Shown piece by piece: positions 16,609 to 63,782 of a stretch of 64,000 nucleotides of DNA. Origin of the DNA: Scenedesmus sp. PABB004 (lineage: Eukaryota); contig JABVCE010000012.1 of assembly GCA_014905635.1 (NCBI GenBank), forward strand, positions 248,001-312,000, read 5' to 3'. The translations under genes were made by a program, and so were the position numbers. The notes beneath the pieces were generated by a model. That model had not been told where the DNA came from. It saw nothing but the letters and a program-made list of their open reading frames with translations, and ran no database searches. Position 1 is the stretch's first letter. The number at the start of each line of letters is the position of its first letter.

Positions 16609-17853
16609 ATGTCTGCGCCGGCGGGCAAGCGGCGCGCCGGGCCGACCACGCGCGCACGGGCGGCTGCAGCACCGGCGGCGGGCGAGGCGCCTGGCGGCGC
16701 AGAGCCGGCGCCGAGGTGGGCGCGCTGCTGATGCTGGTGCCCCCTGGGTGGCGCTGCCTGGCCACGCTGCGCAGTAAGCCTCAGCTGGCTGCAGCAGGCG
16801 CCGCGCGCCGCCTCACCGTCGCACCCGCGCGCCCGCCCGCCCCGCCCACGTCGCCAGCAGCCCGCCCATGCTCTCTGCGCCGGCGGCCCGGTGGCGCGCC
16901 GGGCCGACCACGCGCGCGCGGGCGGCGGTCATCAGGAGGTGGGCGCAGCGCTGCTGTGGACCCCTGGCTGCCTCGCTAGATGGGTGCTGAGCACTCAGCC
17001 ACCGCAGCGGGCGCCGCCTGTCGCCTGACGCCCCGGCGCCGCTGCCCGCTCGCCCCGCCGCAGCCTGCTGCCAGACCTGCCCGAGCCGCTCGTGCTCCAC
17101 ATCCTGAGCCTCTGGCCGCCGTCCCTGCGGGCGTGGTGCGCCAAGCTGGTCTGCAAGGCGGCGCGCGAGCGCTTCCGCGGCGCCAGGCGCGTCTCGCTGT
17201 GCTGCCCCGAGCTGCCGCTGGCGGCGGTGCAGGAGGCGTGGGGGGCGATGCAGGGTGATCGGTGGCAGCAGATGGGGCTGGCCGAGGCGCGCGCGGCGTG
17301 CGGCGACGTGGCGGGCCTGGTCTGGCTGCGCGGCGCGGGCTGCGACGTGCATATGATGCATCGCGCGTGCATGGAAGCAGCGCACTTCGGCCAGATCGCC
17401 GTGCTGGAGTGGGCGCACGGCGAGGGGGTGGACCTGCGGGGGGACGTGTGCCAAGTAGCAGCCGACAACGGGCAGCTGGGTGTGCTGCGCTGGGCGCGCG
17501 CGCAGACGCCGCCGCTGCCGTGGGGCCACGTGTGCTTCAGGGCTTCGCGGCGCGGCGACCTGGAGATGGTGCGCTGGGCGCGCAGCCAGGACGAGCCCGC
17601 GCCGTGGAGCGAGCACGTGTGCGGGACGGCGGCTATGCACGGGCACCTGGAGGCGCTGTGCTGGCTGCGCGCCAACGGCTGCCCGTGGGAGCGCGACTGG
17701 TGCGAGCGCGCGGCAGCACACAAGGGCCACGAGGCCGTGGCCGCGTGGGTCAGGGCGCAGCCGAGTGAGGTGCCAGGAGCAGTTGGCATGAGTGTTTCGG
17801 GAGCGGTTGGCAAGGACAGCGCGCACCTCAGCTCGGTCGTGGATCTGGATTAG
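16609..17853 (+). CDS. F-box/ankyrin-repeat cassette gene, copy 2 (duplicated first exon, extended C-terminus)
   Basis: Exons 16609..16715, 16861..16938, 17064..17853; LPDLPEPLVLHILSLWPP..AKLVCKAARERF; AAMHGHLEALCWLRANGCPW. Confidence 0.8.
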
Positions 17854-17965
17854 GGCGAGGCAAGGCAGGCGTGGCTGGGTGCATGCGCGGGGCGCGGTCT
17901 GCGGCATGGTGCGCGCGCGCGTGGGTGAGCAAGTTGACGCTGGCAGCGGCGCCCGGGCGGGGCGG

Positions 17966-18666
17966 CGCGCGCTGGCAACCAGCGTGACCGCGTGCGGCGC
18001 GCGCGTCGAGCGGGCCGCACGCACGCCCTGCCGCCGCCGGGGACTGGCGTTTGCCGCCCTGCGCTGCGCCACGCCGCGCCCGCCCGGCAGCAGCGCCACG
18101 CGGGCGGCGGTGCAGGGCCCAGGGCACAGGCGCTGCCCGGCCGGCTGCCCGCGCCGCCGCCGCCGAGGAGGCCCCCCGCGCGCGCCACCCCGCCGCCCAC
18201 ACCCGCCGCCCTCAGCGCCTCTCTGCCGCACACGCACGAACACAAGCGCCGGCCGCGCGGCCCACAGCTCCCGCACGCACCGCGCCGCCGCCGCACAGCG
18301 CCCGCCCGCTCGCCCGCGGCGCGCCCCTGGCCAGGCGGGGCGACGCGCGTCGGGCGCCTGACGGCCGGGCCGGTCCGCCCAGCGCACCGCAAGGCGAGCC
18401 GCGCGCGCGGGCGGGCGGGGAGGCAGCGGCGGGCGGCAGCGCTGCGCGGCGTCCGCTGCGGGCGGCGGGGGCACCGGCGGTGCGCGGTGGCGGGCGTGTG
18501 GCGTGGGCCGCCGGGCTTGCGTGCCTCGGGTGCCGCCGGCAGGCCCACCGCCGCGCCGCCGGGCCCGCGCCGGGGCGGGCGCGCGCTGCTGCTGCTGCGC
18601 TCACGCCGCCCGCCCGTTGCCGGCGCCTGCTGCTCTCTGGTGGCCTGTAGGCCCCCAGCACCCGCC
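17966..18666 (+). repeat. Conserved upstream non-coding module, copy 3
   Basis: Starts with GCGCGCTGGCAACC; shared blocks from about 18100. Confidence 0.85.
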
Positions 18667-19631
18667 ATGTCTGCTGCGCCGGCGGGCACGCGGCGCGCCG
18701 GGCCGACCACGCGTGCGCGGGCGGCCGCAGCGGCGGGCGAGGCGCCCGGCGGCGACGAGGCGGCGCCGAGGTGGGCGCGCAGCTGCTGCCACTGCTGGCG
18801 CCCCTGGATGTGACTGCCTGGCCAGGCGGGCGCTGAGCACTGAGCTGCAGCCAGCGCGCACCGTGCGCCGCCTCACCGCTGCACCCGCTCGCCCCGCCGC
18901 GCCGCCAGCAGCCCGCTGCCAGAGCTGGCCGAGTCCCTCGTGCTCCACGTCCTGAGCTTCCTGCCGCCGGCCCTGCAGGCGTGGGCCGCCAGGCTGGTCT
19001 GCAAGGCGGCGCGCGAGCGCTTCTGCGGTGCCACAGACGTCTCGCTGCGCTGCCCCGAGCTGCCGCTGGCGGCAGTGCAGGAGGCGTGGAGGGCGGTGCA
19101 GGGTGACGGGTGGCAGCAGCGGCGGCTGGCCAACGCGCGCGGGGCGTGCGGCGACGTGGCGGGGCTGGCCTGGCTGCGCGCCGCCGGCTGCAACATGGGC
19201 AGCGATGTGGGGTGCACAGCAGCATTTCGCGGCCAGCTCGCCGTGCTGGAGTGGGCGCGCGACAAGGGGCTGGACCTGGACGGCGTGTGCTGGGCAGCAG
19301 CCAACGGCGGGCAGATCGCCATGCTGCGCTGGGCGCGCGCGCAGTCGCCGCCGCTGCCCTGGGGGCCGACTGGGTGTGCTCTGAAGCTGCGGCGCACGGC
19401 GACCTAGAGATGCTGCGCTGGGTGCGCGGCCAGGCGGAGCCCGCGCCGTGGAGCGAGCACCTGTGCGGGACGGCGGCTCTGGACGGGCAGCTGGAGGCGC
19501 TGCGCTGGCTGCGCGCCAACGGCTGCCCGTGGCGGCGCGCTTCATGTGAGCAGCTGGCGGCTGGGCGTGGCCACGAGGCCGTGCTCGCGTGGATCCGGGC
19601 GCAGCCCGCGGCGCCGGACGACGGCGCTTAG
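18667..19631 (+). CDS. F-box/ankyrin-repeat cassette gene, copy 3 (1-bp frameshift in a G run near 19363; possible sequencing error)
   Basis: Exon 1 18667..18770, exon 2 from 18912 (SPLPELAESLVLHVLSFLPP); ankyrin repeats continue in a shifted frame (DWVCSEAAAHGDLEMLRW..GQLEALRWLRANGCPW). Confidence 0.75.
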
Positions 19632-20922: not shown

Positions 20923-23900
20923 ATGTCGGCCCCGCTGCACGCGGCGCTCGTGGGCGAGATGGAGCTCACGAGCGACGGCGGCGACGAGGTGCGCGCCGCA
21001 GCGCTCACCCGCCGCCCCCCGGCGCCTGGCGCGGCGCGGCGTTGCGCACGGGGCGGCGTAGTAGCCTGCCGTGCCGGCGCCGCGCTGCAGCGGCGGCGCG
21101 CCGTGCGGGCGTGGCCTCGCCGCCGCTGCCGCCCGCCGCGGCCGGCTGAGCGCCACCCGGCCCGCCGCCCGCCCTGTGCCTCCCGCTGCCCGTCACGCGT
21201 GCATCGCCAGTACGTGCCCGGGCCGCGCGACGCGGCCGCCGGCAGCGGCAGCGGCAGCGAGCTGGGCGGTAGCAGCAGCAGCGACGACGACGACGGCGAG
21301 GGCGTGGACGCGCTGGAGGTGGACGCGGAGCAGCTGCTGCGCGACGCGGGCGACTCGGGCAGCGACGGCGGCGAGGAGGACGAGGAGGACGAGGAGGAGG
21401 AGGAGGAGGCGGCGGCGCAGGAGGAGGACGAGGCGCCGCTCAGCCGCGCGCGCCTGCTGCGCCTGCTGTTTGGCGCCGCGCGCCGCAGCTCGCAGGACCA
21501 CGGCCGGCTCTTCCAGCGCCTGACGGGGCGCGTCGAGCCGCTGCGGGGGCCCCTCGCGGCGCAGCTCAATGCCAACACCTCGGCGCGCGACGTGGGGCAG
21601 GCCGGCCCCATCTGGGTGCGGAGAGGGGCCCGCGCCCGCGCCGCTCGCCCGCGGGGCGTGCCGCGCCGCGCCGCGCGCGCCGCGCCGCGCCGCACGCGCC
21701 GCGCGCGCCTGACGCGCCGTGCTGCCGCCGCGCCGCCGCGCTGCGCGCAGGCGTGCCTCGACACCGGCTTTGACAGCAGCCTGGCGCCGACGCATAGCAC
21801 GGAGCGGCAGCGCCAGCTGCTGCACGAGCAGCAGGCGCCCAGCCTGCGCGCGCTCAAGCGCCAGCGCACCGCCGCGGCGCAGGCGCGGGCGCGGGCGGGC
21901 GAGGCGCCGCGCGACGGCGACGCCGCGCCCGACCAGCAGCCGGCGGCGCCCGGCGGCGCGCTCACGCGCGCCGCGGCGCGCCGCGCGGCCGAGGCAGCGG
22001 CCGGCGGCGGCGGCGGCGGCGGCTCCGGCGCTGGCGCCGGTGGGGTCGGCGGCGCGCCCGCGCCCGCACCCGCCGGCGGCGGCTCCGGGGCCGGCGCCGG
22101 CGAGGCGGGCGGCGCGGCGACCGGGTTCACCCTGGTGAACACCGCCCAGATGCTCATCAAGCGCGAGGTCTCGCTCGGCCGCAACGTGGGCTTCAGCCGC
22201 GCGCAGCAGCGCCACCTCGCGTGCCACCGCGCGTTCCCGCTGCACCCCCACAAGGTGCGCTGGGCGCGCGCGCGGCGCGCGCGCTGCCGATGTCGTGCGC
22301 TGCCGCGCCCGCCCACACCGCGCGACGCACCACGCCGGCCGCGCCCGCCGCCGCGCGCCGCCAGGTGCGGGACAGCATGCCCAGCAGGGCCTACCTGGGG
22401 CAGTACTCGGACGGCGGCGACTTCTTCGTGGCCGCGTTCCAGGCGCGCGCGGGCTCGGCGGGGCGCCCAGGGCCTGGCGTGGCACCCAGGGTCCAGCAGG
22501 GCGCGGCGCGACGCCGGTGGCTCGGGGACCGGGGCCGCGCGGCGCTGTTAGCTGCTCTGCCTGAAACGCTGCCCGCCGCCGCCGGCGTGGCGCCGTGCTG
22601 CGTATGCGCCGCGTGCGCCGCGCAGGACCGGCGCGTGCGCCTGTACGACACGGCGGCGGGGTGGCGCCTGCGCAAGGACGTGACGACGCGCATGACGCGG
22701 TGGACCATCACCGACTCCTGCCTCTCGCCAGACAACCGACTGCTGGTGCGGCGGGCGCTGGGGTTTAGGGGTAGAACGGGGGGGGGGGGTCGCGCCCTCC
22801 GCCGCCGGAGCGCGCCGCGCGGCGCCTGTTGCTCCTCTCCCTCCGCCATACATGCCGCACGCACACCCCCCACACACTCGCTCCTCTCCCTCTCTGCCGC
22901 TCTCTCTTCCCCCCCTTTCCCCCCTCTTCCCCCCTCCCTCGTTCACCCGCCCGCCAGGTCTACGCGAGCATCAGCCCCGTCGCGTTTGTCGTCAACGTCG
23001 GCTCCTCCTGGGACGTCGTCGAGAGCGCGGCCAACATCACGGAGCTCCACGAGCCCCTCGCCGTCGACGGCTCCGCGGCGCCGCCCGGCGCCGGGGCCGG
23101 GGGCGGCGCGGAGCTGGGCGGCGGGCGTGACTTTGGCATCTGGTCCATTGCCTGGAGCCCCCAGGGGGGGCAGATCATCGCCGGTGTGCCGCGCCGCACC
23201 CCGCGCCCTCTGCTGCCGCCCCGCCGCGCCCGGCGCCGCCGCGCCCCTCGGGGCCGGCTCGCGCGCGGCGCACTCACACACAGCACACAAAGTCATGCCC
23301 ACACCCCGCGCGCCGCCGCCGCCGCCGCTGCCCAGGCACCAACGACCGCGCCGTGTATGTGTATGACGTGGAGAGCAAGGCCTGCCTCGCGCGCCTCACC
23401 GGTGCGCCGCGACGCAGCGCCGGTGCCGCGCTGCGCCCCGTCGCCGCGCCCCGCCCTGCCCGCCCGGCGCCCGGCGCCGCACATCGCCACGCCGCCGCCG
23501 CCGCCGCCGCCGCCGCCTGCCATGCCACGTGCCACTGCCAGGGCACGGGGACGACGTGAACGCCGTGGCCTACCTCGGCGGCGGCAGCCCGCACCTGCTG
23601 GTCAGCGGGAGCGACGACGAGATGGTGCGCCTGTGGGACGTGCGCGTGCGGTCCGCGTCCGGCCGCAACGTGCGCAAGCCGCAGGGCGTGCTCGTCGGTG
23701 AGCGGCGGCGCGCGCCCCGGGGCGGGGGGCCGGGGAGGGGGGGACGCGCCGGCTGCGCTCCGCGCCTCCGCGTCGTGCCGCGTCGCCGCCGCCGCGCCGC
23801 CGGCCGGCCGCTCGCGCCCCGACCGCGGCCCTGCCGCCGTGCGCCCGCCAAACCCCTGCCAGGCCACGTCGGGGGCGTGACGCACGTGTGCGCGCGCGGC

Positions 23901-24941
23901 GACGGCGTGCACGTGCTCTCCAACTCCAAGGACCAGACTGCGCGCCTCTGGGACGTGCGCGCCGCGCTCAGCGCGGCCGCCGCCGCCGACGCCGCGCGCG
24001 AGCGCCCGCCGCTTGAGCGGTGGGACTATCGGTGGGAGGAGAACCCGGGTGCGCGGGGCGCGGGCGGACGCTGCCGCAGCTGCCGCGCCTGCTGCGCGTG
24101 GGGCGGCGCGCCGCGCGCGCGCGGCTGCGTCCCCCGCCCGCCGACCCTCGCGCCGCCGCCGCCTGCTGTTCGCCCGCCGCCCGCCGCCGCTGCTGGTTGG
24201 CCGCAGCGTCTGGCTACAACGTGCGGCACCCGCGGGACGTCAGCCTCATGGCCTACAGGTGAGGGGCTGAGGGTTTAGGGGTATAGGAGGGGGTTTTAAA
24301 CCCTGACCCAGGTGACAATCAGGGGGGGCATCGACCGGGCGCTAGTGCAGGGCGTGGCGCTGCAGCCGCGGTGGGACGCGGTGGGGCGTGGTGCCAGAGA
24401 GCGTCGGCGAGCACGGCCGGGCGGTTGCGGCCCGCGCCGCGCTGACCCGCGCGGCGCCGCGCGCGCAGGGGCCACGGCGTGCTGCAGACGCTGGTGCGGG
24501 CCTACTTCAGCCCCGCGCACACCACGGGGCAACGCTACGTCTACGCCGGCAGCGCCGACGGCACCGTGCGCGCGTGGGACATCGTCAGCGGGCAGCAGGT
24601 GCGCGGCGGCGTCGGCTGCCGGCTGCCGGCTGCCGCGCGGCGCTCGCGCCGCCGCCGCCGGCTCGGCGCGCCCGGCTGCGCGCCGCCGCGCCCGCGCCGC
24701 CGACCGCGCCGCGCCGCCCGCCGTGCACGTGCGCCGCCGCGCCGCCGCGCCGCCGTCCGCGGGGTTGAAGGTCGCCGCGTTTGAGTATCACCGCGCGCTC
24801 GTGCGCGACGTGAGCTGGCACCCGTACGAGGCCGAGCTGACCAGCGTCAGCTGGGACGGCCGCGTCGTGAGCTGGGGCGTCGAGCCGCCCGCGGGCGGGC
24901 CGCTGCAGGCGGTGCGGGGCGACGTGGGTCGCTACTACTAG
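20923..24941 (+). CDS. DCAF11: DCAF11/WDR23 (plant LEC14B-like) WD40 protein, multi-exon
   Basis: SRAYLGQYSDGGDFFVAAFQ, WTITDSCLSPD, FGIWSIAWS, GHGDDVNAV, GHVGGVTH..RGDG..LSNSKDQTARLWDVR, WDYRW, GHGVLQTLVRAYFSP..TGQRYVY, VRDVSWHP. Confidence 0.9.
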
Positions 24942-25189: not shown

Positions 25190-25800
25190 CAGACCGCGCA
25201 CGGCGCACGGCTGGGCCCGCCCGGCAGCGCTGGCAACACGCGGGCGGCGGTGCAGCGGCCAGGGCCCAGGCGCCGCCCGGCCGGCTGCCCGCGCCGCCGC
25301 CGAGGAGGCCCCCCGCGCGCGCCGCCCCGCCGCCCACAGCCGCCGCCCTCAGCGCCTCCCTGCCATACACACACGAGCGCCGGCCGCGGCCCACAGCTCG
25401 CCCACGCACACGTGCTGCCGCCGCCCAGCGCCCGCCCCCGCCCGCGGCGCGCCCCTGGCCAGGCGGGGCGCGGGCGCCTGACGGCCGGTCCATCCAGCGC
25501 AGCGCCAGGCGAGCCGCGCGCGCGGGCAGGCGGGGAGGGCAGCGGCGGCGGGCCGCGCTGCGCAGCGCCCGCTGCGGGCGGCGGGGGCACTGGCGGTGCG
25601 CGGCGGGCGGGCTTGTGGCGTGAGCCGCCGGGCCTGCGCGCCCTGGGCGCCGCTGGCAGGCCCGTTCCCGCGCCGCCGCATCCGGGGGCGGCGGCGGGCG
25701 CCGCGCCCTGCCGCTGCTGCGCTCACGCCGCCCCCGCGCTCACGCCCGCTGCTGGCGCCGCCTGCTGCTCCCTGCTGGCCCGCAGGCCCCAGGTGGCGTC
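25190..25800 (+). repeat. Conserved upstream non-coding module, copy 4
   Basis: GGCAACCGGC, then shared blocks including CCCCTGGCCAGGCGGGGCG. Confidence 0.85.
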
Positions 25801-26836
25801 ATGTCTGCGCCGGCGGGCAAGCGGCGCGGTGGGCCGACCACGCGCGCGCGGGCGGCCGCAGCGGCTGGCGAGGCACCCGGCGGCAACGAGGCAGCTCCGA
25901 GGTGGGCGCGCAGCCGCTGCTGTTGCCCGCCTGACTGGTGCCGCTGGCCAGGCGGGGGCTGCGCAGCGAGTCACAGCCAGCTGCAGCAGGCGCCGCGCGC
26001 CGCCTCACCGCCGCCCCGCGCCGCCCTGCCCAGCCCACGTCGCCAGCAGCCCGCTGCCAGAGCTGCCCGAGTCCCTCGTGCTCCACGCCCTGAGCTTCCT
26101 GCCGCCGGCCCTGTAGGCGTGGCGTGCCAAGCTGGTCTGCAAGGCGGCGCACGAGCGCTTCCGCGGCGCCACGGTCATCTCAGCGGACTGCCCCGAGCTG
26201 CCGCTGGCGGCGGTGCAGGAGGCGTGGCGGGCGGTGCAGGGTGATGGGTTGAAGCAGCTGTGCAAGCTCGCCACGGCACGCGCGGCGTGCGGCGACGTGG
26301 CGGGGCTGGCCTGGCTGCACGGCGCCGGCTGCGCCATGGACTGGGGCGTGGGCCGGGAAGCAGCACGCGCCGGCCAGATCGCCGTGCTGGAGTGGGCGCG
26401 CGACCAGGGGCTGTGCCTGCACTTTGTGTGCGAGGCAGCAGCCAAGGGCGGGCAGCGGGCGGTGCTGCGCTGGGCGCGCGCGCAGACGCCGCCGGTGCCG
26501 TGGGGTGACTGATGGTGTGGCGTGTTCTACCTGGCTGCACGACGCGGTGACCTGGAGATGCTGCGCTGGGCGCGCGCCCAGGCTGAGCCCGCGCCGTGGA
26601 GCGAGCACGTGTGGACGGCGGTTCTGGACGGGCAGCTGGAGCGCTGCGCTGGCTGCGCGCCAACGGCTGCCCGTGGGAGCGCGACTGGTGCGAGTCTGCG
26701 GCGGCAGACAACGGCCACGAGGCCATGACCGCGTGGATCCGGGCACAGCCCGCGGCGCCGGACGGCTGGGACTCGGACGAGGACGAGCAGGAGGAGGGGG
26801 AGGGGGACGACGAGGGTGGGCTGCACGGCGCTTTAG
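25801..26836 (+). pseudogene. F-box/ankyrin-repeat cassette gene, copy 4, pseudogenised
   Basis: Exon 1 25801..25901, exon 2 from 26050; CAG>TAG at 26114, TGA near 26510, frameshift near 26640; acidic tail DSDEDEQEEGEGDDE. Confidence 0.8.
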
Positions 26837-27127: not shown

Positions 27128-27981
27128 ACACGGCGGGTGCCGCGGCCGTGTGGTGCGGCGGGTGCCGCCGCGGCGCGCGAAAGCCCTCGCCGCGCCCCAG
27201 GCCGCAGGCGGGGCGTGGTTCTGCGGGCGTCTCACTGGCCGCTGTGCGTCCCGCGCTGCGCGCCAGTCGCCGCGGCCGCGGGCTGGGCGCGCGGCGCGCG
27301 CGAGTTCGCCATCGCAAACGACCGCTGCCCAGAGCTCGCGTTCCGCCCGCGCCGTCTGCGCGCGCGGTGGTGAGTGCCCAGTGAGTTTTTGAACACTACC
27401 GGCCGTCCGAAGCGGCCGTGCGGGCGCCAGATAAGACGTTTCGGGATGTGCCAGGTTGACGCGACTGCGACTGTGCGACCCGCTGCTTGTGGCTCTCGCA
27501 TCCCCGCCGCCGCGCACGCTCCCACACTCTCCCTGCCTGGATTAGGGCCGGCCAACCCGTCCGCTGCGCGCGGAGAGCAGCGCCCGCTGCACGCCGGCCG
27601 CACCCCGCCTCCCCTCCTCCGCGGCGCACACGGTGCGGCCCGCGCGACGGCGCCAGCGCGCTCCTCAGGCCATCCCCTGCTCCTCCCGGCCTGCGGGGGC
27701 CGGCTCGGCGCTAGGGCGCGGCGCGCGCGGCGCGCGCGAGGTTGACGCGACGCGCGGAAAAAGCCGGCCCGCCGCTGCCTCTCGAGGGCACCGCGCCGGC
27801 GCGTCGGCGCCAGAGCGCCGCCGCAGCCGTCCGGGGCGGGCCGGGCGGCGCAGGCGGGCGGCGGCACCGGCCGGCCGCCGCTGCCGGCCGAAGCTGTCTC
27901 GGCGGCTGGCTGGCTGACGTTGCCCGCCGCCCGCCCCCGGCCTCCGCGCGCCGCAGCCCCCTGCCTCCCCCGCCGTACACC

Positions 27982-37668
<9,687 letters not shown>

Positions 37669-38716: not shown

Positions 38717-38806
38717 GCGAAGGGATGCAACAGTTGTTTCTGGGATCGACGCCGCGGCGTGCGCGGCAGTGGGCGCGGGGTGCGTGGCGCGCGTCGCTGC
38801 GGCGCG

Positions 38807-39398
38807 CGCGCGCTGGCAACCGGCTGGCTGCGCAAGCGACGGCAGCAACTGGCGCGCGCGCACGCGCGCGCGCACGTGCGCACGCTCGCCGCCGTGGGCG
38901 GCGCAGTGCATGCACCTGGGCCCTGCGCAGGGCCCAGGGCGCAGGCGCCGCCCGGCCGGCTGCCCGCGCCGCCGCCGAGCAGGCCTCCCCGCGGCACCCC
39001 GCCGCCCACAGTCGCCGCCCTCAGCGCCTCCCTGCCACACGCACGCACGAGCGCCGGCCGCGGCCCACAGCTCCCCCACGCACACGCGCCGCCGCCGCTG
39101 CCCAGCGCCCACCCCACGCCCGCGGCGCGCCCCTGGCCAGGCGGGGCGCGGACCCGCGGGCGCCTGGTGACTAGGCCGTGCCGCCCAGTGCAGCGCCAGG
39201 CGAGCCGTGCGCGCGGGCAGGCAGTGAGGGGAGCGGCGGCGGCGGGCGGGCGGCGCTGCGCGGCACCCGCTGCGGGCGGCGGGGGCACCAGCGGTGCGCG
39301 GCGGGCGGGCGTGTGGCGTGGAACGCCGTGCCTGCGCGCCCCGAGCGTCGCTGGCAGGCTCGCCGCCGCGCCGCCGCGCCGTGGGGCGGGGCGCCGCA

Positions 39399-39456
<58 letters not shown>

Positions 39457-39542
39457 ACTGCGCTCACGCCGCCCGCGCGCTCACGCCAGCTGCCGCGGCG
39501 CTTGCTGCTCCCTGCCCGGCCCGCAGGCCCCCAGCACTCGCC
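38807..39542 (+). repeat. Conserved upstream non-coding module, copy 5 (CTG run expanded at 39401-39456)
   Basis: GCGCGCTGGCAACCGG, then shared blocks. Confidence 0.85.
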
Positions 39543-40494
39543 ATGTCCTCTGCGCCGGCGGGCAAGCGGCGTGCCGGGCCGACCACGCGCGCGCAGGCGG
39601 CCGCAGCGGCGGGCGAGCTGCAGCTCGCCGCCCAGCAGCTGCTGGGCGGCGCGGAGGCGGCGCCGAGGTGGGAACGCTGCTGCTGCTACTGCTGGCTGGC
39701 CATATGGGCGATGAGCAGCGAGTCACAGCCAGCTCCAGCACGCGCCGCCTCACCGCCGCACCCGCGCGCCCGCCCCGCCGCGCCGCCCCGCCAGCAGCCC
39801 GCTGCCGGAGCTGTCCATGCCCCTCGTGCTCCACGTCCTGAGCTTCCTGCCGCTGGCCCTGCAGGCGTGGACTGCCAGGCTGGTCTGCAAGGCGGCGCGC
39901 GAGCGCTTCCACGGCGCCACGGCCGTCTCGCTGCGCTGCCCCGAGCTGCCGCTGACGGCGGTGCAGGAGGCGTGGCGGGCGGTGCAGGGTGGCGGGTGGG
40001 AGCGGCGCTGGCTGGTCAGGGCGCGCGTGGCGTGTGGCGACGTGGCGGGGCTGGCCTGGCTGCGCGGCGCCGGCTGCGACCTGCAGCACGTGGTCGACGA
40101 AGCAGTACATCACGGCCAGGTCGCTGTGCTGGAGTGGGCGCGCGACGAGGGGCTGGACCTGCGGGACGTGTGCTACTTTGCAGCCGCAGCCGGGCAGCTG
40201 GGCGTGCTGCGCTGGGCGCGCGCGCAGACGCCGCCGCTGACATGGGACGAACACGTGTGCGCCTGGGCTGCGTGGCGCGGCGACGTGGAGATGCTGCGCT
40301 GGGCGCGCACCCAAGCCGAGCCCGCGCGGTGGGCCGAGAGCGTGTGCGAGGCGGCGGCTCTGCATGGGCACCTGGAGGCGCTGCGCTGGCTGCGCGCCAA
40401 CGGCTGCCCGTGGCAGCGCGCCACGTGCGAGCGCGTTGCGGCGCTCGAGGGCCACGAGGCTGTGGTCGCATGGATCCGCGAGCAGCCCGAGTGA
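39543..40494 (+). CDS. F-box/ankyrin-repeat cassette gene, copy 5 (intact)
   Basis: Exon 1 39543..39667, phase-2 intron, exon 2 39798..40494: LPELSMPLVLHVLSFLP..RLVCKAARERF..AALHGHLEALRWLRANGCPW..QPE-stop. Confidence 0.85.
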
Positions 40495-40572
40495 GTTTGG
40501 GGCGGGAGAGGGGTTGAACCTCCTGCCGCGCCAGCACTTGCAGCGACCGCGGCGACGCGCGCCGCCGCCGGC

Positions 40573-50462: not shown

Positions 50463-51392
50463 TCAGAGCCTGTCCTCCGGCACCGCGGGCTGCGCCCGGA
50501 TCCACGCGACCACGGCCTCGTGGCCGTTGTGTGCTGCGCAGACCTCGCAGTTGCTGCGCCACCACGGGCAGCCGCCGGCACGCAGCCAGCGCAGCACCTC
50601 CAGCTGCCCGGCCGCAGCCGCCGTCTCGCACGTGAGCTCGTCCAGCGGCATGGGCTCGGCCTGGGCGCGCGCCCAGCGCAGCATCTCCAGGTCGCCGCGC
50701 CGCGCAGCATTGTGGCACTCAGCGCCGCCCCAGGGCAGCGGCGGCGCCTGCGCGCGCGCCCAACGCAGCACCGCGAGCTGCCCGCCCACGGCTGCTGCGT
50801 TGCACACGCCCCCCAGGTCCAGCCCCTCGTCGCGCGCCCACTCCAGCACGGCGAGCTGGCCGTGCTCCGCTGCTGCCCAGCCCACGCTGCCCATGGCGCA
50901 GCCGGCGCCGTGCAGCCAGGCCAGCCCCGCCATGTCACCGCACGCCACGCGCGCGCTGGCCAGCTGCCGCTGCTTCATCCCATCACCCTGCACCGCCCGC
51001 CACGCCTCCTGCACCGCCGCCAGCGGCAGCTCGGGGCAGCGCAGCGAGACGGCCGTGGCGCCGTGGAAGCGCTCGCGCGCCGCCTTGCAGACCAGCCTGG
51101 CAGTCCACGCCTGCAGGGCCGGCGGCAGGAAGCTCAGGACGTGGAGCACGAGGGGCTCGGGCAGGTCCCGCCACAGGCTGCTGGCGGTGGCGCGCGCGGG
51201 GCAGGGCGGGCGGGCGGTGAGGCGGCGCGCGGCGCGTGCTGGCTGCAGTTCGGCGCTCAGCGCCCGCCTGGCCAGGCAGCACCAGCAGCAGCCCGCCCAC
51301 CTCGCCTCCACGTCCTCGCCGCTGGCCGCCTCGCCCACCGCCGCTGCCGTGGTCGGCCCGGCGCGCCGCGCGCCCGCCGGCGCAGCAGACAT
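50463..51392 (-). CDS. F-box/ankyrin-repeat cassette gene, copy 6 (intact)
   Basis: Exon 1 51392..51301, exon 2 51177..50463: LWRDLPEPLVLHVLSFLPP..RLVCKAARERF..GQLEVLRWLRAGGCPW. Confidence 0.85.
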   Translation of the reverse strand: MSAAPAGARRAGPTTAAAVGEAASGEDVEARWAGCCWCCLARRALSAELQPARAARRLTARPPCPARATASSLWRDLPEPLVLHVLSFLPPALQAWTARLVCKAARERFHGATAVSLRCPELPLAAVQEAWRAVQGDGMKQRQLASARVACGDMAGLAWLHGAGCAMGSVGWAAAEHGQLAVLEWARDEGLDLGGVCNAAAVGGQLAVLRWARAQAPPLPWGGAECHNAARRGDLEMLRWARAQAEPMPLDELTCETAAAAGQLEVLRWLRAGGCPWWRSNCEVCAAHNGHEAVVAWIRAQPAVPEDRL

Positions 51393-52120
51393 GGCACGGC
51401 CTGGGTGCCTGAGTGGCAGCAGGGAGCAGCGGGCGGGGCACCGGCGACGTGCGGGTGAGCGTGCGGGCGGCGTGAGCGCAGCAGCAGCAGCAGGCACCTC
51501 AAAGAGTGAGTGCTCGCTCGCCCGGCGCCCCCCACCCCGGGGCGGCGGCGCGCGGCGGGCCTGCCAGCGGGCCCGGGGCGCGCAGTCCCGGCCGCCCACG
51601 CAACACGCCCGCCCGCCGCGCACCGCCGCAGCCCGCACCGCCCGCAGCGGCGCCTCCCAGCGCAGACCGCCCGCTGCCGCTGCCTCCCCGCCCGCCCGCG
51701 CGCGCGGCTCGCCTGGCGCTGGGAGGAACGGCCCCGCCGTCACGCGCCCGACGCGCGTCGCCCCGCCTGGCTAGGGGCACGCCGCGGGTGGGGGCGGGCG
51801 CTGGGCGGCGGCGCGGCGCGGTGCGTGCGGGAGCTGTGGGCGCCGGCCGGCGCTCGTGTGCGTGTGTGGCGGGGGGTGGGGGGGGGGGGCTGTGTGCGGC
51901 GGCTGTGGGCGGCGGGCAGCGCGCGCCGGAGGCCTCCTCGGCAGCGGCGCGGGCAGCCGGCCGGGCGGCGCCTGGGCCCTGCACCGCCGCCCGCCCGCCG
52001 ACGCCGTGTGGGCGGCGACGCGCTGCCGCCGCCAGCGCCCGGTGGGCACGGCGAGCTGTCCGCCTCCGCCGCTGGGCCCTGCACGGCGGTCACAGCGCGA
52101 CACCGATCGGCCGGTTGCCC
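51393..52120 (-). repeat. Conserved upstream non-coding module, copy 6
   Basis: Reverse complement shows GGCAACCGG and the shared blocks. Confidence 0.8.
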
Positions 52121-52239
52121 ACACCTGCCGGCCGCAAGCTTGACGCACCGCACACGCGCACTCCCACCAAGGTGCCAGCCCGTCAGCGCTCGTTCCAGTG
52201 CCGTGCCGCGACACACCGCGGCCTCCACGCGGCGCGGAG

Positions 52240-52601
52240 CTAGCTGGCCTTGGGCCCGCACCTCGGCAGCGGCAGCAGCAGGTTGGTGCGCGCCACATAG
52301 TCCTGATACTCCTGCGCGCGCGGCAGTGGTCGGTGGCGGCGCGTGAGGGCCGAGGCCGAGGCGCTGCACGGCGCAAACGGGCAGGCGCGCTGCGCGGCGC
52401 CGCCAGCCAGCGCCGCGCCCCCAGCCCCGCGCCGCGCCGCGCCGCGCGCCTGCGTGGTGCCCCAGCGCTGCTGCGCCTGCTTCTCCTGCAGCGGCACGCC
52501 GCTGACGAAGCGCAGCAGCAGCATCACGAACAGCGGGCTCGCGACGCTCGCGAGCTGCGGCCCGGACAGGCCGCCTGAGGCAAACACAAACATGCCCCAC
52601 C

Positions 52602-52648
<47 letters not shown>

Positions 52649-53707
52649 TGCGGGCGGGTGCCGCCGAGTCGGCGCGTGTGCCACAGCTCCACGCTCAGCC
52701 CTCGGCCCCTCAAACCCAAAACCCTGAACCCTGGAAAATGTCCAACCCCAGGGCAAAAAGCCCCACCAGACGAGCATCTCGCCGCAGTAGTTTGGGTAGC
52801 GCGAGAGGGACCAGAGCCCGCTGTCGATGAACTTGCCGCGGTTGGCGGGGTCCTGCGCGCGGCGTGGCCGCGGGCGGGAGCGGGCACGGAGGTCGGCGGC
52901 CGCGGCGGCGGCGAGGCGAGGCCCCCCCCCCCAGGCCAGGCCAGCCCAGCCTCCCCAGCCCAGCCCAGGGGCGCGCCTGCTTGAAGGCAAACTTCTGCCC
53001 GTCCGCCGTGGCCTCCAGCACCAGGCCGGCCGCATACACCGCGCCGCCGACCACGTCGCTCCACAGCAGGCGCGACGGGCCGCCGGCCGTGGTCGTGTTG
53101 AGCAGCAGGACGGGCAGCAGCGTGGTGTACACCCACACCGCCTGCGCGCGCCCGCGCCGGCGGCGGCGGCTGCGTGTGTGCTCGCGCGCTTGGGCGCGCC
53201 GCCGCTGTCGCTGCCGCACATGCCCACCCCCAAAACCATCACACCCAGCAACACCCACACCCAGACCCACACCCACAGCTCGCACACACGCAACACACAG
53301 CACACAGCACGCACAGCGCACACACAGCCCCCCGGCACGCGCCTGCATGGTCCAGTAGACCCAGAAGGTGAGCGGCTTGTGCTTGGCCTCGTCGAAGCGC
53401 GAGTCGTGCCCCGTGCGCAGCACACGCAGCACGAGGAAGCCGCCCAGGCGCAGCGCCCACGCGGCGACAAACACGGTCGCCACGATCTGCGGCGGGGGCG
53501 CGGCGGGGCGGGGTGGGGAGCGCGGGCGGGCGGGTGGGCAGCGCGGCGGGGCAGGGGCGGCGCGGGGGCGGTGTGGTGCGGGGCGCGGCGCGGCGAGGGG
53601 CGCGCCGCGCCTTGCGCGCGTGCTGCGACTGCGCCGTCAGCAGGGAGCCGACCGCCAGCGCGGCGAAGCTGCCCGTGCCGAGCAAGTCGTAAAACTTCTC
53701 CGTCTGT

Positions 53708-53738
<31 letters not shown>

Positions 53739-54248
53739 CGCGGCGGCGGCGTCGGGGCGGCAGCAGCGTGCGCCGGGCGGCGCCCGGCAGCGCTGCTGGC
53801 AGCGCCGCCAACGTCAGCGCGCATGCGCCGACCTTGAGCAGCGCCGAGACCGCCCAGCCGCCCCACTGGATCGCGACGTCGATGATGAGCCAGGAGAGCA
53901 TGCCCCACTGCTTGAACGTGACCTGGTCGATGACCGACGCGGACGCAAAGCTCGCCGCCGCCGCCGGCCGCGCGCCGCCGAGCAGCGTCGCCGCGAGCAG
54001 CGACCCCGCGCGCGCCGGCGCCCTGCGGGGCGGGGCGGAGCGCGGAGCGCGTGGGCGACGGGCGAGGAGAGGGGCGCCGGGCACGCCGCGGCGGCGGCGG
54101 CGCGCGGCGCGCGCCTGAACGTGCGCAGCAGCGACGCGCCGCTGCCCCCGCCGCCCGCGGCGCCAGAGAGGCTGCGGCGCGCTGACACGCTCCCACCGGC
54201 CGCGACACGCATCTGGCTCGCCAGCCGGGCCAGGGCGCGCAGGGGCAT
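52240..54248 (-). CDS. DUF1295 / steroid 5-alpha-reductase-like membrane protein, multi-exon
   Basis: [18 protein letters not shown]....[52 protein letters not shown]. Confidence 0.88.
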
Positions 54249-54586
54249 GCTGCCGGGCGGCGGCGACGAGGAGCTGCGGTCGCGGTCACGCGGGTGTGGG
54301 AGGCGACGGACGTCCGCCTGCTGGCGGAGCGTCGGACGGCGCTGAGCTCGGGATGAGGTCAGCGGAGGGCCAGGGAGCTGTGCGTTTGTGCGGCCCGCTT
54401 GCCGGCGGCGAGGGGTTCGCCGCAGCGGCGCCGCACCGCACGCGTTGCCAAGCTGCCCCGCTCAGTCTCACGCCCCGGACCACTCACGCGCGCCGCCGAG
54501 CGCAGTTTCGCCGTCAGCACGCGCGACAGCAGCTGCGGCGGCGCTGACCGGCACGTGAGAGCGCCCCGCGTGCGGCGATGGCCGCC

Positions 54587-56459
54587 ATGGACGACGAATT
54601 CGACTACGGCGACGAGCCGGTGAGGCCGCGCGCCGCTGCCGTCGATGCTCGCGCGCAGCAGCGCACGCCGCTGCTGACCCCGCTTCGCGAACGGCGCGCC
54701 CAGCGCGGCGCCGGGGGCGAGCAGGAGCGGCTGCGCCACATGGGCAGCATGCGCCGGGCCGCGGTGGCGGTGCAGAACCAGCCGCACGACGAGGTGGGGC
54801 GCCGCGCGCTGGGCGCCTGGGCGCGCCACGCGTGCCCTGGCACGGCCGGCGCGCACCACGCGCGATCACCCCCCCCCTCACGCCCCTCGCCCCGGCCGCA
54901 GGAGGTGGCGCTGAGCGAGTCTGAGAGCTGCGCGAGCCCCGACGACTGCTCGCCCTCCAGCCGCGGTGCGCCCGCGCGCCACGCCCCGCCGCAGCGCGCG
55001 CGCCGCCCGCCAGCAACCCCGCCCGCGCGCGCCGCAGGCGCGGCGTCGCATCCAGAGGCGTCGGCGGACTCGCTCGGCGCCGGCGCGCCCTCGCCACCGC
55101 CGCCGCAGCATGCCTGGGGCGCGGCGCCCGCCGCAGCGGCGGCGCAGCAGCCGCCGGAGCAGCAGCGGCTGGACGGTGGCAGAGGTGTGGGTGTCCCGGC
55201 TGCGGCGCAGCAACGGCCGCCAGCTGCAGCGCGGCCCCGCTGACGCGCTGCTCCCCCCGCTCCCCCCTCCCCCCGCCAGGCCTGCTGTACGACTCGCAGG
55301 ATTATGCCGGCCTGGTTGTGCCGGACGACGTGCGGGTGCGCGCGCCGCGGCTAGCCGCCGCATGAGCCGCGCCCGCGGCCGGCGCGCCGCTGCCGGCCCC
55401 CGCGCCACCATCACCCGCTGCGCCGCCACCTGTCGCCGCCGCACACGCGCACGCGCGCAGGCGCTGTTTGGGCTCATCGCGTCGTGCGCGCCGCCAGTGA
55501 TCGAGCTGGGCGCGCCGCTGCGGCCGTTCATCCCCGACTACATCCCCGCCCTGGGCGGGCCGGACGAGTTTGTCAAGGTCCCCCGCCCCGACGGCCGCGC
55601 CGACGGCCTCGGCACGCGGGTGCGCACGGCGGCGGCGGCGGCGGCGCGGCGGCACGGGGCGGCGGCGAGGAGCTTTGCATGTGCGCGAGCGCGTCCGCCG
55701 CCAGCGCTGAGGTGGCCGCCGGCGCCGCCGCCGCGCACGCATGCGCGCAGGTGCTCGACGAGCCCGCGGCGGCGCAGAGTGACGCGGGCCTGCTGGCGCT
55801 GCAGCTGCGCGCGCTGGGCAAGGAGGCGCCGGGCGGCGGCGGCGCGCCGCAGGTCGTCGTGTGCATCCCGCACGGCGCGCCCGACGCGCGCGCGCGGCTG
55901 GGCGCGTGGGTGTCCAGCGTCGCCGCGCTGCACAAGGCGCGCCCCGCGGCGGCGGTGGCGTACAGCCGGCCCATGCCCGACGTCGAGGCGCTGATGCAGG
56001 TGGGGGACGCGCGCGCGAAGGCAGGGGCGGTTCGAGGGCCCTGCAGGCGCCTGGCTGTGGCCTGCTGCTCAACCCCCGCCCACCGCAGGAGTGGCCGCCG
56101 GAGCTCGAGGCGGCGCTGCGCGGCAGCCGCCTGCCGACCGCCGACCTGGTGGGCCGCGGCGCGGCGGCGCGGCGCCCGAGGCGGGCAGGCCTGCGGTCGC
56201 CCTGGCCCGGCTCACGCGCGGCCGCCGCCGCCGCCGCGCGAAGGAGCTGGACCTGCTGTCGTTCGCCAAGCTGGTCTGTGCGCTGCTGGACGTGCCGGTG
56301 CACGGCGACGGCGGCGTGGTGGAGAGCCTGCACCTGCTGCTCACGCTGCACGCCGCGTTCCGGGCCAACCCCTTCTTCCGCGGCGCGCTCGACGACGCCG
56401 CGTGGCCGGGCGGGCCCCTCCTCGCCGGCGACGCGCGCGCGGGCCTGGCCAGCCGCTGA
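54587..56459 (+). CDS. IFT46: Intraflagellar transport protein 46, multi-exon
   Basis: NQPHDE, LRPFIPDYIPALG..DEFVKVPRPDG..DGLG..VLDEPAA.QSD, YSRPMPDVEALMQEWPPE, LLDVPV..VESLHLL.TL. Confidence 0.9.
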
Positions 56460-57094
56460 GAGATGTCGCAGCGGCCGAGCCAGCTGATGGCACATCTCTC
56501 AGCCAGCTCGGCCGCGAGCGGCTGGGCGCGGCGCGGCTGCGCGGCACCGCGCGCGCTCGCAGCTGCGGGTAGGCCGCGCGGCGGCGGCGGCGGCGGGCGG
56601 GCGGCGGGCGTCGGTGGCCCGTCTCACCGCGTGGCGCGTGTCGGGGGCCGCGCGCCGGGACGAACCGCGCGCGATCGGGGCCGACTGACGCGCGAACTGA
56701 GGCAGCAGTGACGGTGCCCTGCCGCGACGAGTGAGCGCGCGCCCCGCTCCCCACACGCAGGCCGCTGTGCGCACACACAGCGCTGCCGGTGCGCGCGAGG
56801 AGCAGCAGGGACGCGGCGCAGACGCTTCGCACACCCGCACTCAAGCGCCATGCAGCCGCCGCGCGGGGCCGCCTGAGATCAGCATGCACGGCGGTCGCAT
56901 GGCCAGCGAGTCCAACGCAGCGCTGCGGGGCACGTCCTGCGCGAAAAAGAAGGGCGCGCTCGCGAGCCGAGTCCTGCGCTGGGGTGAGCGGCTGCGCCCC
57001 AGCGGGCGTCACCAGCCTGTGGCAGGCCGGCACACCGTTCCACCGGGCCGCCCGCGGCGCCTGGCGGGCGCCCGGCTCGGCGGTCGGGCGCGGC

Positions 57095-61286: not shown

Positions 61287-62169
61287 CGCCGGCGGCGTGC
61301 GGCGCGCGGCGCCGTGCGCCCCGCGCGGGGCGGGCGCCGGCGCCGCGGCGGCGCAGTCATACTACCGCCTGGGTGGTTTGAAGGGGGCCCTGAACCCCAC
61401 CTTCCTTGTCCTTGCTTGCGCCATGCTTGACGGCTGCAGCGGCGCCCGGCGGCGGCAGCCGTGGCCGGCGCGCGCGCGCGCCCGCGAGCGAGCATGTGCC
61501 TCGGGAGCGGCGCGTGTGGCACGCGCGCGCCACGCGTGTGGGTGGGCGGGCGGGGCGGCCGCGTGTAGCTAGCTAGCCAGCGCCAGTGGCCGCCCGCCTG
61601 CGCGTGCGTTGCGTTGCCCGCCTGCGTTTTGTGCGGTGGTGGTGGTGGCGGCATGGCATGGTGGGCGGGGCGCGGGAGCGGGCCTCTGGCCGCCGCCACG
61701 CGACGACAACGGGGAACACGGGGGGAGGACCCCGGGGCCGGTCCCAACGCACTTGCGCCTGTGGGGCGAACCGACGCGCGTGTGTGCACAGCCAACGCAA
61801 CGGCACGCGCGCCACGCGAGCGGCGTGCCGCCGCCGGCTGACGATCGCCGGCGGGGCGCCGCGAATAACCGCCGCGGCCACCGGCGCAGCAGCAGTTTGT
61901 GCATCAGAGCAGACACCACACCAGACGCGCGTGTGTTTGTATGTTGACCGTTGCTGCTGCCCGCTCTCTCCACGCCCTCGCGAGTTGCCCCCCGCGCGAT
62001 GGGAGCACCACCCTGACCCAACGACACAACCCCGACCCAACGCACGTGGGCGGCGGGGCAGCAGTAGGAGCCTAGGCGTGCCTGCGTGCTGCCGAGGCGC
62101 TGCGCGGCTTTGTTGCGTGTGACGCGCGGAGATCGCGACGCCCCCCCCCCCTGACCGCATGCGCGCGTG

Positions 62170-62837
62170 CCGCCGGGCGCTGGCGGTGGCAGCGCGTCGC
62201 CCAGCGCGCCGCCCGGCCGCTGCGCCACGCGGGCGGCGCGGTGCAGGGCCCAGGGCGCAGGCGCCGCCCGGCCGGCTGCCCGCGCCGCCGCCGAGGAGGC
62301 CCCCGCGCGCCGCCCCGCCACCCACAGCCGCCTCCCTCAGCGCCTCCCTGCCGCACACGCACACGCGCACGCGCCGGCCGCGCCCCTCACAGCGCCCGCA
62401 CGCGCCGCGCCACTGTTCGAATCGCAGCCTGCCCCCACCCGCGCCGCGCCCCTGGCCAGGCGGGGCGAGGACCTGCGGGCGCCTGGTGACTAGGCCGTGC
62501 CGCCCAGCGCAGCGCCAGGCGAGCCGCGCGCGCGGGCAGGCGGGGAGGGCAGCGGCGGGCGGGCGCGCCGCGCTGCGCGACGCTTGCTGCGGGCGGCGGG
62601 GGCACCGGCACGGCGCGGCGGGCGGGCGTGTGGCGTGGGCCGCCGGGACTGCGCGCCTCGGGCGTCGCTGGCAGGCCCGCCGCCGCGCCGCCGCGCCGGG
62701 GGCGGGGGGGGGGGGGGGCGGCGGGCGCCGCGCGCTGCTGCTGCTGCTGCTGCGCTCACGCCGCCCGCGCTCGCCCCCGCTGCTGCCGGTGCCCCGCCCG
62801 CTGCTCCCTGGTCGACCGCAGGCTGTCAGGTGGCACC
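62170..62837 (+). repeat. Conserved upstream non-coding module, copy 7
   Basis: Shared blocks; GGGCGCCTGGTGACTAGGCCGTGCC variant shared with copy 5. Confidence 0.85.
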
Positions 62838-63782
62838 ATGTCTGCTGCGCTGGCGGGCAAGCGGCACGCCAGGCCGACGACGAGCGTGCTGGCAGCGGCT
62901 GCAGCTGCGGCGGGCGAGGCGCCTGGTGGCGCGGAGGCGGCGCCGAGGTGGGCGCGCTGCTGCTGCTGGTGCCCCCTGGCTGGTGCTGCCTGGAACGGCA
63001 CGCGCTGCCCTCCAGGCACCACCGCCCACAGCAGGCGCCGCCTGACGGCTTGCCGCCTGCCCCGCGCGCCCCGTCCTGCGCCGCCAGCAGCCCGTGAGCG
63101 GAGCTGTCCGACCCCCTCGTGCTCCACGTCCTGAGCTTCTGGTCGCTGGCCCTGCGGGCATGGACCGCCAGGCTGGTCTGCAAGGCGGCGCGCGAGCGCT
63201 TCCGCGGCGCCAGGCGCGTCTCGCTGCGCTGCCCGGAGCTGCCGCTGGCGGCGGTGCAGGAGGCGTGGCGGGTGGTGCCGGGTGACAAGGGGGGGAGAGG
63301 TGGCCAGCGCGCGCGCGGCGTGCGGCGACGTGGCGGGGCTGGCCTGGCTGTGCAGCGCCGGCTGCGACATGGATGACAGTGTGGGCTGGGCAGCAGCGGA
63401 GCACGGCCAGCTTGCCGTGCTGGAGTGGGCGCGCGGCGAGGGGCTGGACCCGGGGGGCGTGTGCAGCGGAGCAGCCGCGGGCGGGCAGTGGGCGGTGCTG
63501 CGCTGGGCGCGCGCGCAGACGCCGCCGGCGCCCTGGGGCAAGTACGTGTCCTCCTGGGCTGCGCTGCACGGCGACCTGGAGATGCTGCGCTGGGGTCGCG
63601 CCCAGGTGGAGCCCGCGCCGTGGGACGGCGAAGCGTGTAGGGTGGCGGCTCTGTCTGGGCAGCTTGAGGTGCTGCGCTGGCTGCGCGCCAACGGCTGCCC
63701 GTGGCAGCGCGCCGAGTGCGAGCGCTTGGCGGACCGGCGCCACGCGGCCGTGGTCGCGTGGATCCAGGCGCAGCCCGAGTGA
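62838..63782 (+). pseudogene. F-box/ankyrin-repeat cassette gene, copy 7, probably pseudogenised
   Basis: Exon 1 62838..62947; exon 2 from 63091 has an in-frame TGA at 63095 (TGG in copy 6) and a frameshift in the G run near 63290; ends QPE-TGA. Confidence 0.75.

Follow-up and report, generated by a model that had tools for sequence, protein, structure and literature searches.

The stretch of Scenedesmus sp. PABB004 DNA analyzed here (GenBank assembly GCA_014905635.1, contig JABVCE010000012.1, positions 248,001 to 312,000 of the forward strand; 64,000 nucleotides, referred to below as the window) carries a repeated unit of about 1.6 kb, present seven times and laid out to encode an F-box-like motif followed by short ankyrin repeats. 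Analysis of these copies supported diversifying selection on the ankyrin surface. Variation was concentrated in a stripe of positions on the first helix of each repeat, and nonsynonymous change at this stripe was shown to be several-fold faster than change in the introns, in the upstream DNA or at adjacent synonymous positions. We consider it probable that the copies belong to a clustered birth-and-death family of putative substrate receptors of SCF (SKP1-cullin-F-box) ubiquitin ligases, kept diverse by selection at the ankyrin stripe.

The guanine plus cytosine (GC) content of the window is about 80%, with values of 74-83% in each 2-kb bin. A blastn comparison of positions 38001-42000 with the whole window recovered seven units of about 1.6 kb with 77-80% identity to copy E, and the same seven loci were the only matches in the window when four related database proteins were searched by tblastn. 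In each unit a non-coding block of about 650 bp precedes exon 1, a GT..AG intron separates the two exons, and exon 2 encodes the F-box-like motif and six ankyrin repeats. Three of the seven copies are intact (B, E and F), three are disrupted (C, D and G) and one (A) is truncated by the edge of the window. The visible part of copy A is free of lesions, and its whole protein, with seven repeats, forms the C-terminus of public model P0035. Copy C has a single 1-nt frameshift where five G occur in succession (about 19361-19365) and is otherwise open to 19631. In copy D the F-box is interrupted by a TAG (26114-26116), a 9-nt insertion in frame introduces a TGA, and two deletions, one of 3 nt and one of 1 nt (the latter near 26640), are also present. 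The third codon of exon 2 in copy G is a TGA (63095-63097), and the reading frame of this copy shifts at seven consecutive G residues (about 63289-63295). Assembly errors could account for the homopolymer frameshifts of C and G.

The gene model was derived from a MAFFT alignment of the seven units, in which the ATG is conserved, the donor GAG/GTGGG is invariant and the acceptor is CAGCAG/CC (a slash marks the junction). Exon 1 measures 107, 107, 104, 101, 125, 92 and 110 nt in copies A to G, all 2 mod 3, and introns of 123-348 nt bounded by GT..AG were present in all seven copies. The spliced product joins MSAPAGKRRAGPTTRARAA...GEAPGG.EAAPS to PLPELPEPLVLHVLSFLPPAL..., and the same splice is used in the database gene models of the family. 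While all 10 gap runs in exon 1 were divisible by 3, this was true of only 28% of those upstream of the ATG (676 columns), and the upstream block displayed no 3-base periodicity (variable sites 65/64/57); on these two grounds a coding function for the block of about 650 bp was ruled out. The block may be promoter and 5' untranslated region or only passenger DNA.

A hidden Markov model (HMM) built from the window copies found 32 copies in 23 Scenedesmus sp. PABB004 gene models, four of them being window copies (P0035 ends with copy A, P0032 contains B and C, and P0034 contains F). Counting D, E and G, the family comprises about 35 copies, a few of which may be overlapping models of one locus, and all but two of the 23 models lie on one contig of 1,235,393 bp.

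The repeats of this family are a short variant of the ankyrin fold. With a Pfam cut-off of 22.7 bits, Ank_4 gave 35.5, 28.1 and 27.4 bits for copies E, B and F, respectively, and it exceeded the cut-off in 25 of the 27 aligned family members. Modeling of copy E exon 2 with AlphaFold2, from an alignment of 27 rows, gave a mean predicted local distance difference test score (pLDDT) of 85.8, exceeding 90 across the repeats, and yielded six helix pairs in which helix 1 corresponds to (V)CxxAAxx and helix 2 to LxxLxW.R. The best PDB matches by Foldseek were designed ankyrin repeat proteins (DARPins), Espin, EHMT1 and ankyrin, and the family profile matched a DARPin chain with an E value of 2e-30. 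The repeats are 26-29 residues long (spacings 78 and 87 nt) compared with the canonical 33, and the canonical 33-residue repeat with TPLH and a beta-hairpin finger was not found: in an HMM alignment to DARPins about six hairpin residues are missing and VCxx replaces TPLH. With respect to repeat number, an extra repeat is present in copy A and in the copies of P0027, P0028, P0029 and P0037, and one or more repeats fewer in those of P0004, P0031 and P0081.

Repeat registers were counted from the G of AAxxG. The variable stripe comprises registers -10, -9, -6, -5, -2 and -1, and the 24 codons at helix registers -6, -5, -2 and -1 are termed x-positions. In the seven window copies, the mean number of distinct residues was 5.2, 3.5, 4.0 and 3.0 at these four registers, respectively, and 1.0-2.3 at every other register from -8 to +9. 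The same pattern was displayed by the approximately 35 copies of the family. Across 47 family rows, entropy was 2.49 bits at the four helix registers versus 0.78 in the remaining ankyrin part, and 27 of the 30 highest-entropy positions fell within the 36 stripe positions of 231, which is far beyond chance (hypergeometric 3e-24). A 24-residue signature was unique in all 16 rows with complete repeats (source annotation); complete rows differed at a mean of 17 of the 24 signature positions, compared with 8.5 of 54 scaffold positions.

These results bear on a first-pass annotation of the window, made from the sequence alone, which had described a nearly invariant scaffold interrupted by a variable segment after AGC. 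The near-invariance of the scaffold was borne out, the proportion of nonsynonymous differences (pN) being 0.094 at scaffold registers and 0.51 at the helix-1 x-positions. The motifs and all seven variable segments that it quoted were located in the sequence. It had described the segment as differing in every copy, which goes too far, as copies F and G both read VGWAAAEHG, and it had placed the phenomenon at 17330..63760, a range outside which one quoted segment, EIDSDVCSAAAGHG, falls, as it belongs to copy A at the window start. The spacing i, i+1, i+4, i+5 puts the variable residues on one side of the helix, with the conserved V, C, A and A on the opposite side. The stripe corresponds to the predicted solvent side of inner helix 1 together with its N-cap and, to judge from ankyrin architecture, would line the concave groove.

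Divergence was analyzed in the seven window copies. Mean pairwise difference (p) was 0.150 in the upstream non-coding DNA (bootstrap 0.134-0.166; 676 columns) and 0.218 in the intron (0.184-0.251). In scaffold codons it was 0.131 at third positions and 0.094 at positions 1+2, while positions 1+2 of the 24 x-position codons reached 0.514 (0.433-0.587). The earlier remark that adjacent non-coding DNA looked better conserved than the variable codons was therefore correct. Nei-Gojobori (NG86) dN/dS was 0.65 at the scaffold and 2.2 at x-positions, where it rose to 2.6 when only B, E and F were compared. These values overstate omega (dN/dS) here because GC content at third codon positions (GC3) is 0.91.

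Codon site models were fitted to the seven copies (284 codons) with our own implementation (Goldman-Yang type, F3x4 frequencies, all branch lengths optimized). Log likelihood (lnL) rose from -3323.9 under M1a to -3268.4 under M2a (twice the difference, 2dlnL, 111; omega 16 at 8.8% of sites). The comparison of M7 with M8, which had been proposed as the check on the original claim of diversifying selection, gave 2dlnL 126, and M8a versus M8 gave 110. All eight robustness runs that included ankyrin columns favored M2a over M1a, with 2dlnL of 46.6-133.7: 97 for the six full-length copies with gap-free columns, 88 with copies A and D removed, 49.4 for intact B, E and F only, 83 for the intact copies with partial A, 47 for disrupted C, D and G only, 99 with F61 frequencies, 134 with the upstream-DNA topology and 101 for ankyrin columns only. 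The claim of diversifying selection on the ankyrin surface is upheld by these tests, which were significant in every subset tried and, as described below, also when codon-rate variation was allowed.

Under M8, 16 sites had a naive empirical Bayes (NEB) posterior of at least 0.95, one in the linker and 15 in the ankyrin part, and all 15 of the latter lie in the stripe. Selected sites made up 12 of the 24 x-positions but only 3 of the 143 other ankyrin columns (Fisher 1.5e-9), and those three are at -10 or -9. When the 15 sites were mapped on the AlphaFold2 model by DSSP, 10 were inside helix 1, five were at most one residue from its ends and none was in helix 2. The proposed surface location therefore holds as regards helix 1 and its N-cap, while the position on the concave face is inferred.

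The first-pass annotation had compared the variable positions with those randomized in DARPins, among them positions 2, 3, 5, 13 and 14. In the HMM alignment DARPin positions 13 and 14 are matched by registers -2 and -1, the 'rr' of the family motif CaaAArrG aligning with x13 and x14 of the DARPin chains, and registers -6 and -5 correspond to canonical H9 and L10. Of the 12 equivalents of positions 13 and 14, 5 were selected sites, a higher share than the 10 among the remaining 155 ankyrin columns (Fisher 0.0016). At positions 2, 3 and 5 the analogy fails because the family lacks the stretch of about six hairpin residues into which they fall. The family is thus like DARPins in its ankyrin fold, in the use of positions 13 and 14 and in having a constant scaffold with a variable helix-1 face. 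It is unlike them in its shorter repeats without TPLH and in its extra variable positions, namely canonical H9 and L10 and the two residues before the helix.

Several observations weigh against the reading of these genes as SCF receptors diversified by selection. The first concern the F-box, which is only weakly detectable in the sequence. At E<=0.01 Pfam F-box-like matched nine of the 27 members, with 3e-5 as the best value, and 18 had no such match. Scores were below the Pfam cut-off, as in copy F (21.7 versus 24.3 bits), with no match in copies E and B. The canonical Trp after VCK is Ala in the family, and the three helices modeled in the N-terminal part (residues 7-15, 19-29 and 31-36) had pLDDT of only 58-67. 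It is accordingly conceivable, though unlikely, that selection is real and the proteins are not SCF adaptors. In that case the N-terminus would be a helix bundle of degenerate F-box type serving some different purpose, and the surface would diversify for a different kind of binding, for example in regulation, scaffolding or self-recognition. Set against this, a profile built from residues 1-69 of five window copies matched seven PDB sequences at E<=10, six of which are F-box proteins aligned exactly on their F-boxes (FBXO2 0.017, MAX2 about 0.12, FBXO42 0.39), and the motif LPELPEPLVLHVLSFLPP..LVCKAARERF aligns residue for residue with the F-boxes of FBXO2 and MAX2. The model does contain three helices in this part, and Pfam F-box domains also occur in more distantly related proteins that have this type of repeat.

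The F-box of the family had earlier been called constant. Its conservation stands: entropy is 0.52 bits across the 47 rows, as low as that of the ankyrin scaffold, and for exon 1, F-box and linker together M1a versus M2a gave a 2dlnL of only 6.2 (p 0.044). It is the identification of the motif as an F-box that is less secure. The six ankyrin repeats lie C-terminal to the motif, after a linker of about 35 residues, as a separate interaction domain, and omega above 1 in the binding domain with a conserved F-box is the combination reported in nematode and plant adaptor repertoires. In F-box and linker codons third positions (p 0.088) were more conserved than positions 1+2 (0.148), probably owing to extreme GC3 and a few variable linker residues.

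A second group of observations concerns the tests themselves. The codon models were run in our own code on seven sequences, with NEB rather than Bayes empirical Bayes posteriors, and the proportion of synonymous differences (pS) was raised at x-codons too (0.31 versus 0.14 at scaffold codons). M1a with gamma variation on the whole codon rate (M1a+G; lnL -3256.8) fitted better than plain M2a, so that much of the raw signal is rate heterogeneity, which is inseparable into dN and dS at a single codon. Homoplasy was high, with 53-57% of informative site pairs incompatible, and a run-length test on 469 polymorphic sites in six copies detected significant short tracts of 49-95 bp common to copy pairs (global p 0.002-0.03). 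These were a 95-bp upstream tract shared by B and D (global p 0.004), an 87-bp tract over the F-box and linker of E and F (0.002) and a 49-bp intron tract in D and E (0.03); a 30-bp tract over the repeat-2 helix of F and G was significant for the pair (p 0.002) but not globally (0.18). Short conversion events therefore occur between copies and may move variable cassettes among them, and recombination of this kind can inflate site-model tests. A PHI-type test on the window copies was not significant (p 0.11-0.70).

Despite these results, it is quite improbable that local hypermutation, short-tract conversion or multi-nucleotide changes have been misread as positive selection. Gamma variation did not absorb the signal, as M2a+G (lnL -3242.5) exceeded M1a+G by 2dlnL 28.6 (p 6e-7; omega 16 at 8.9% of sites; three starts each). 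Variable codons are interspersed among invariant ones at intervals of 2-4 codons, at i, i+1, i+4 and i+5 and in six repeats, an arrangement which tracks the protein helix and not a DNA feature, and the interleaved scaffold third positions differed by only 0.131. Both the coding and the upstream trees are star-like, with internal branches about 7% of total length, so topology errors matter little, and the alternative topology retained the signal (2dlnL 134). One further caution attaches to the structural reading, as the concave face was assigned from secondary structure, helical periodicity and alignment to DARPins.

The surroundings of the copies were considered with respect to autonomous spread. 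A Pfam scan of 118 long open reading frames (ORFs) showed the window copies to be interspersed with ordinary genes; they occur singly, in both orientations, between unrelated genes for WD40, mitochondrial pyruvate carrier (MPC), Xaa-Pro peptidase, thimet oligopeptidase, DUF1295 and IFT46 proteins. The duplicated unit includes the non-coding DNA 5' of each ATG, its 5' border is sharp within about 40 bp, and beyond the unit borders the copies fail to align (p about 0.51). Homology stops directly 3' of the ankyrin domain, which leaves C-terminal tails and 3' flanks unrelated among copies. These sharp borders, and the presence of almost all of the copies on one contig, would suit a selfish element, either a 1.6-kb unit spreading autonomously or a toxin-antidote, drive or incompatibility factor, and some young nematode F-box genes offer a precedent in the portion of PMC11573670 consulted. 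Unit ends, however, had no terminal inverted repeats, only GC-rich chance matches, no transposase or reverse transcriptase was matched by Pfam among the 118 long ORFs, and the retained intron rules out retroposition. We regard such an element as very unlikely, although it would be compatible with the SCF-receptor explanation.

Neutral drift, with the variable residues as unconstrained surface positions in a family of mostly decaying pseudogenes, deserves hardly any credence: stops or frameshifts in three of the seven window copies do count against a selected repertoire and overall M0 omega is below 1 (0.57 on the full set, 0.57-0.67 across sets), but unconstrained sites would be expected at the non-coding p of about 0.15-0.22 and not at the observed 0.51, M8a with omega fixed at 1 was rejected against M8, the intact copies alone were significant, and the disrupted copies alone keep 54% of sites at omega of about 0, indicating constraint over most of their history.

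The preferred explanation, that of SCF receptors diversified at the ankyrin stripe, may be set out as follows. The predicted proteins would be about 260-300 amino acids in length, with a short basic N-terminal exon and, after the conserved F-box-like motif and its linker, short ankyrin repeats that usually number six but in some copies five or seven. The F-box-like motif may dock the protein on SKP1/cullin, and the stripe would serve as the ligand-binding groove; if so, each copy would bind a different partner. The family would then constitute a repertoire of SCF substrate receptors with differing specificities, its diversity maintained by selection. New copies would arise by local duplication of the 1.6-kb unit and insertion between ordinary genes, short conversion tracts would shift pieces among copies, and some copies decay. 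Foreign proteins are one candidate for the targets. The role put forward in the first-pass annotation, degradation of viral or transposon proteins or a part in genetic conflict, is speculation. In its fullest form, the approximately 35 copies would be a germline-encoded recognition repertoire in one chromosomal region of a very compact genome, an ankyrin 'binder library' on a ubiquitin-ligase handle. Each copy would then mark a different protein for degradation, whether a foreign one (viral or transposon) or one from a rival allele; this we offer as a tentative and rather doubtful proposal.

Coordinates of the unit copies, of features of copy E and of neighboring genes are collected in the table.

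Table. Features of the 64,000-nucleotide window (positions are those of the window; strand in brackets)
Feature	Position	Parts	Basis or remark
Copy A	1..1297 (-)	exon 1 714..608, intron 607..463, exon 2 462..1	blastn + alignment; truncated by window start
Copy B	16041..17853 (+)	exon 1 16609-16715, intron 16716-17063, exon 2 17064-17853	intact; blastn span 16041..17769
Copy C	18112..19631 (+)	exon 1 18667-18770, intron 18771-18911, exon 2 from 18912	blastn span 18112..19608
Copy D	25195..26752 (+)	exon 1 25801-25901, intron 25902-26049, exon 2 from 26050	pseudogene
Copy E	38919..40494 (+)	upstream 38919-39542, exon 1 39543-39667, intron 39668-39797, exon 2 39798-40494	intact, reference copy; blastn span 38919..40495 (+)
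Copy E, F-box-like motif	starts 39799 (+)		
Copy E, helix pairs R1-R6	40012-40065, 40090-40143, 40168-40221, 40255-40308, 40342-40395, 40426-40479 (+)		
Copy E, 15 selected ankyrin codons	starts 40087, 40096, 40099, 40108, 40165, 40174, 40177, 40186, 40264, 40363, 40423, 40432, 40435, 40444, 40447 (+)		M8, >=0.95
Copy E, selected linker codon	39922 (+)		M8
Copy F	50463..51981 (-)	exon 1 51392..51301, intron 51300..51178, exon 2 51177..50463	intact; blastn span 51981..50486
Copy G	62235..63783 (+)	exon 1 62838-62947, intron 62948-63090, exon 2 from 63091	disrupted
WD40	3614-5401 (-)		Pfam
Mitochondrial pyruvate carrier (MPC)	5066-6076		Pfam
Xaa-Pro peptidase	8115-11133 (-)		Pfam
WD40	23367-24275		Pfam
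VWA + DUF11-repeat gene	27715-36423 (+)	at least 6 DUF11 repeats	Pfam
Thimet oligopeptidase	43394-44254 (-)		Pfam
DUF1295	51743-54358 (-)		Pfam
IFT46	54915-56569		Pfam

Additional features were observed within the units. Exon 1 of all copies (e.g. 39543-39667) carries a conserved basic stretch, GKRRAGPTTRAR, which could be a localization signal or degron. Part of exon 1 is duplicated within the intron of copy B, together with a GAGGTGGG donor that belongs to the duplicate, and public model P0032 includes this duplicate as an additional exon. A (CTG)n microsatellite of about 60 nt is present at 39398-39463 in the upstream block of copy E only, the other copies having shorter runs. At the end of exon 2 (e.g. 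40480-40500, 17760-17780 and 63770-63790), copies B, E and G finish with CCGAGTGAG, which contains a GTGAG donor-like site, and in C, D and F, as in several copies from the database, the reading frame continues into an acidic tail (DDG.., DSDEDE..). The family may have a second intron or alternative C-termini.

With respect to the public annotation, models P0027-P0053 join family copies to unrelated neighbors, including histone deacetylase-like, aspartyl aminopeptidase, beta-glucosidase, fbiC, FZR2 and chorismate mutase genes among others. Copy F adjoins the DUF1295 gene, and model P0034 fuses the two. Since every copy keeps its own ATG and the conserved upstream block, the fused models are probably read-through predictions in stop-poor DNA of 80% GC. 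Between 28 and 38 kb GC skew is strongly negative (-0.09 to -0.14), which coincides with the position of the VWA/DUF11 gene.

Both the combination of F-box with ankyrin repeats and the pattern of selected adaptors were already known; the clustered ankyrin-solenoid family in a green alga appears to be new. In the portion of PMC8120010 which quotes Thomas 2006, nematode and plant F-box (FTH/FBA) and MATH-BTB families are characterized by purifying selection on the F-box and positive selection on the C-terminal binding domain. As far as that account extends, the algal family resembles them in its conserved N-terminal F-box-like motif, positively selected C-terminal binding domain, clustered paralogues, many pseudogenes and the idea of a fast-evolving SCF repertoire. 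It is unlike them in that its binding module is a short ankyrin solenoid and not FTH, FBA or MATH, its host is a chlorophyte, and its copies are interspersed with ordinary genes instead of forming plain tandem arrays.

An F-box or F-box-like motif joined to ankyrin repeats is shared with proteins of protists, giant viruses and bacteria. Legionella AnkB is such a protein according to the part of PMC5506055 consulted, and database matches with both domains were obtained by protein search in Balamuthia, Capsaspora and Pandoravirus. The short 'GCPW' repeat type is common to many protist, algal and Pandoravirus proteins at 30-48% identity. Unlike the algal family, the protist, giant-virus and bacterial F-box-ankyrin proteins are mostly single genes or effectors which hijack the host SCF. 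Poxvirus ANK/PRANC proteins have the reverse domain order. Full-text literature searches on F-box or ankyrin selection in algae yielded no report of site-level diversifying selection on clustered F-box-ankyrin paralogues, and neither these nor a search on the name of the organism yielded a description of the algal family. PMC12571836, in which the genome is given as 39.8 Mb, 78.5% GC and 7,092 genes, does not mention 'ankyrin' or 'F-box'.

Fast-evolving F-box adaptor families are thought to be a tool of arms races in nematodes and plants, and their targets are mostly unknown. In the present family the putative contact stripe can be read from sequence on a small rigid solenoid, and with about 35 copies in an alga of 7,092 genes the hunt for targets is unusually tractable. 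The family is also a natural counterpart to DARPin libraries, revealing which positions evolution has randomized on a shortened ankyrin scaffold. Should the recognition-repertoire reading prove true, these genes would represent an innate-immunity or genetic-conflict system of a kind undescribed for green algae.

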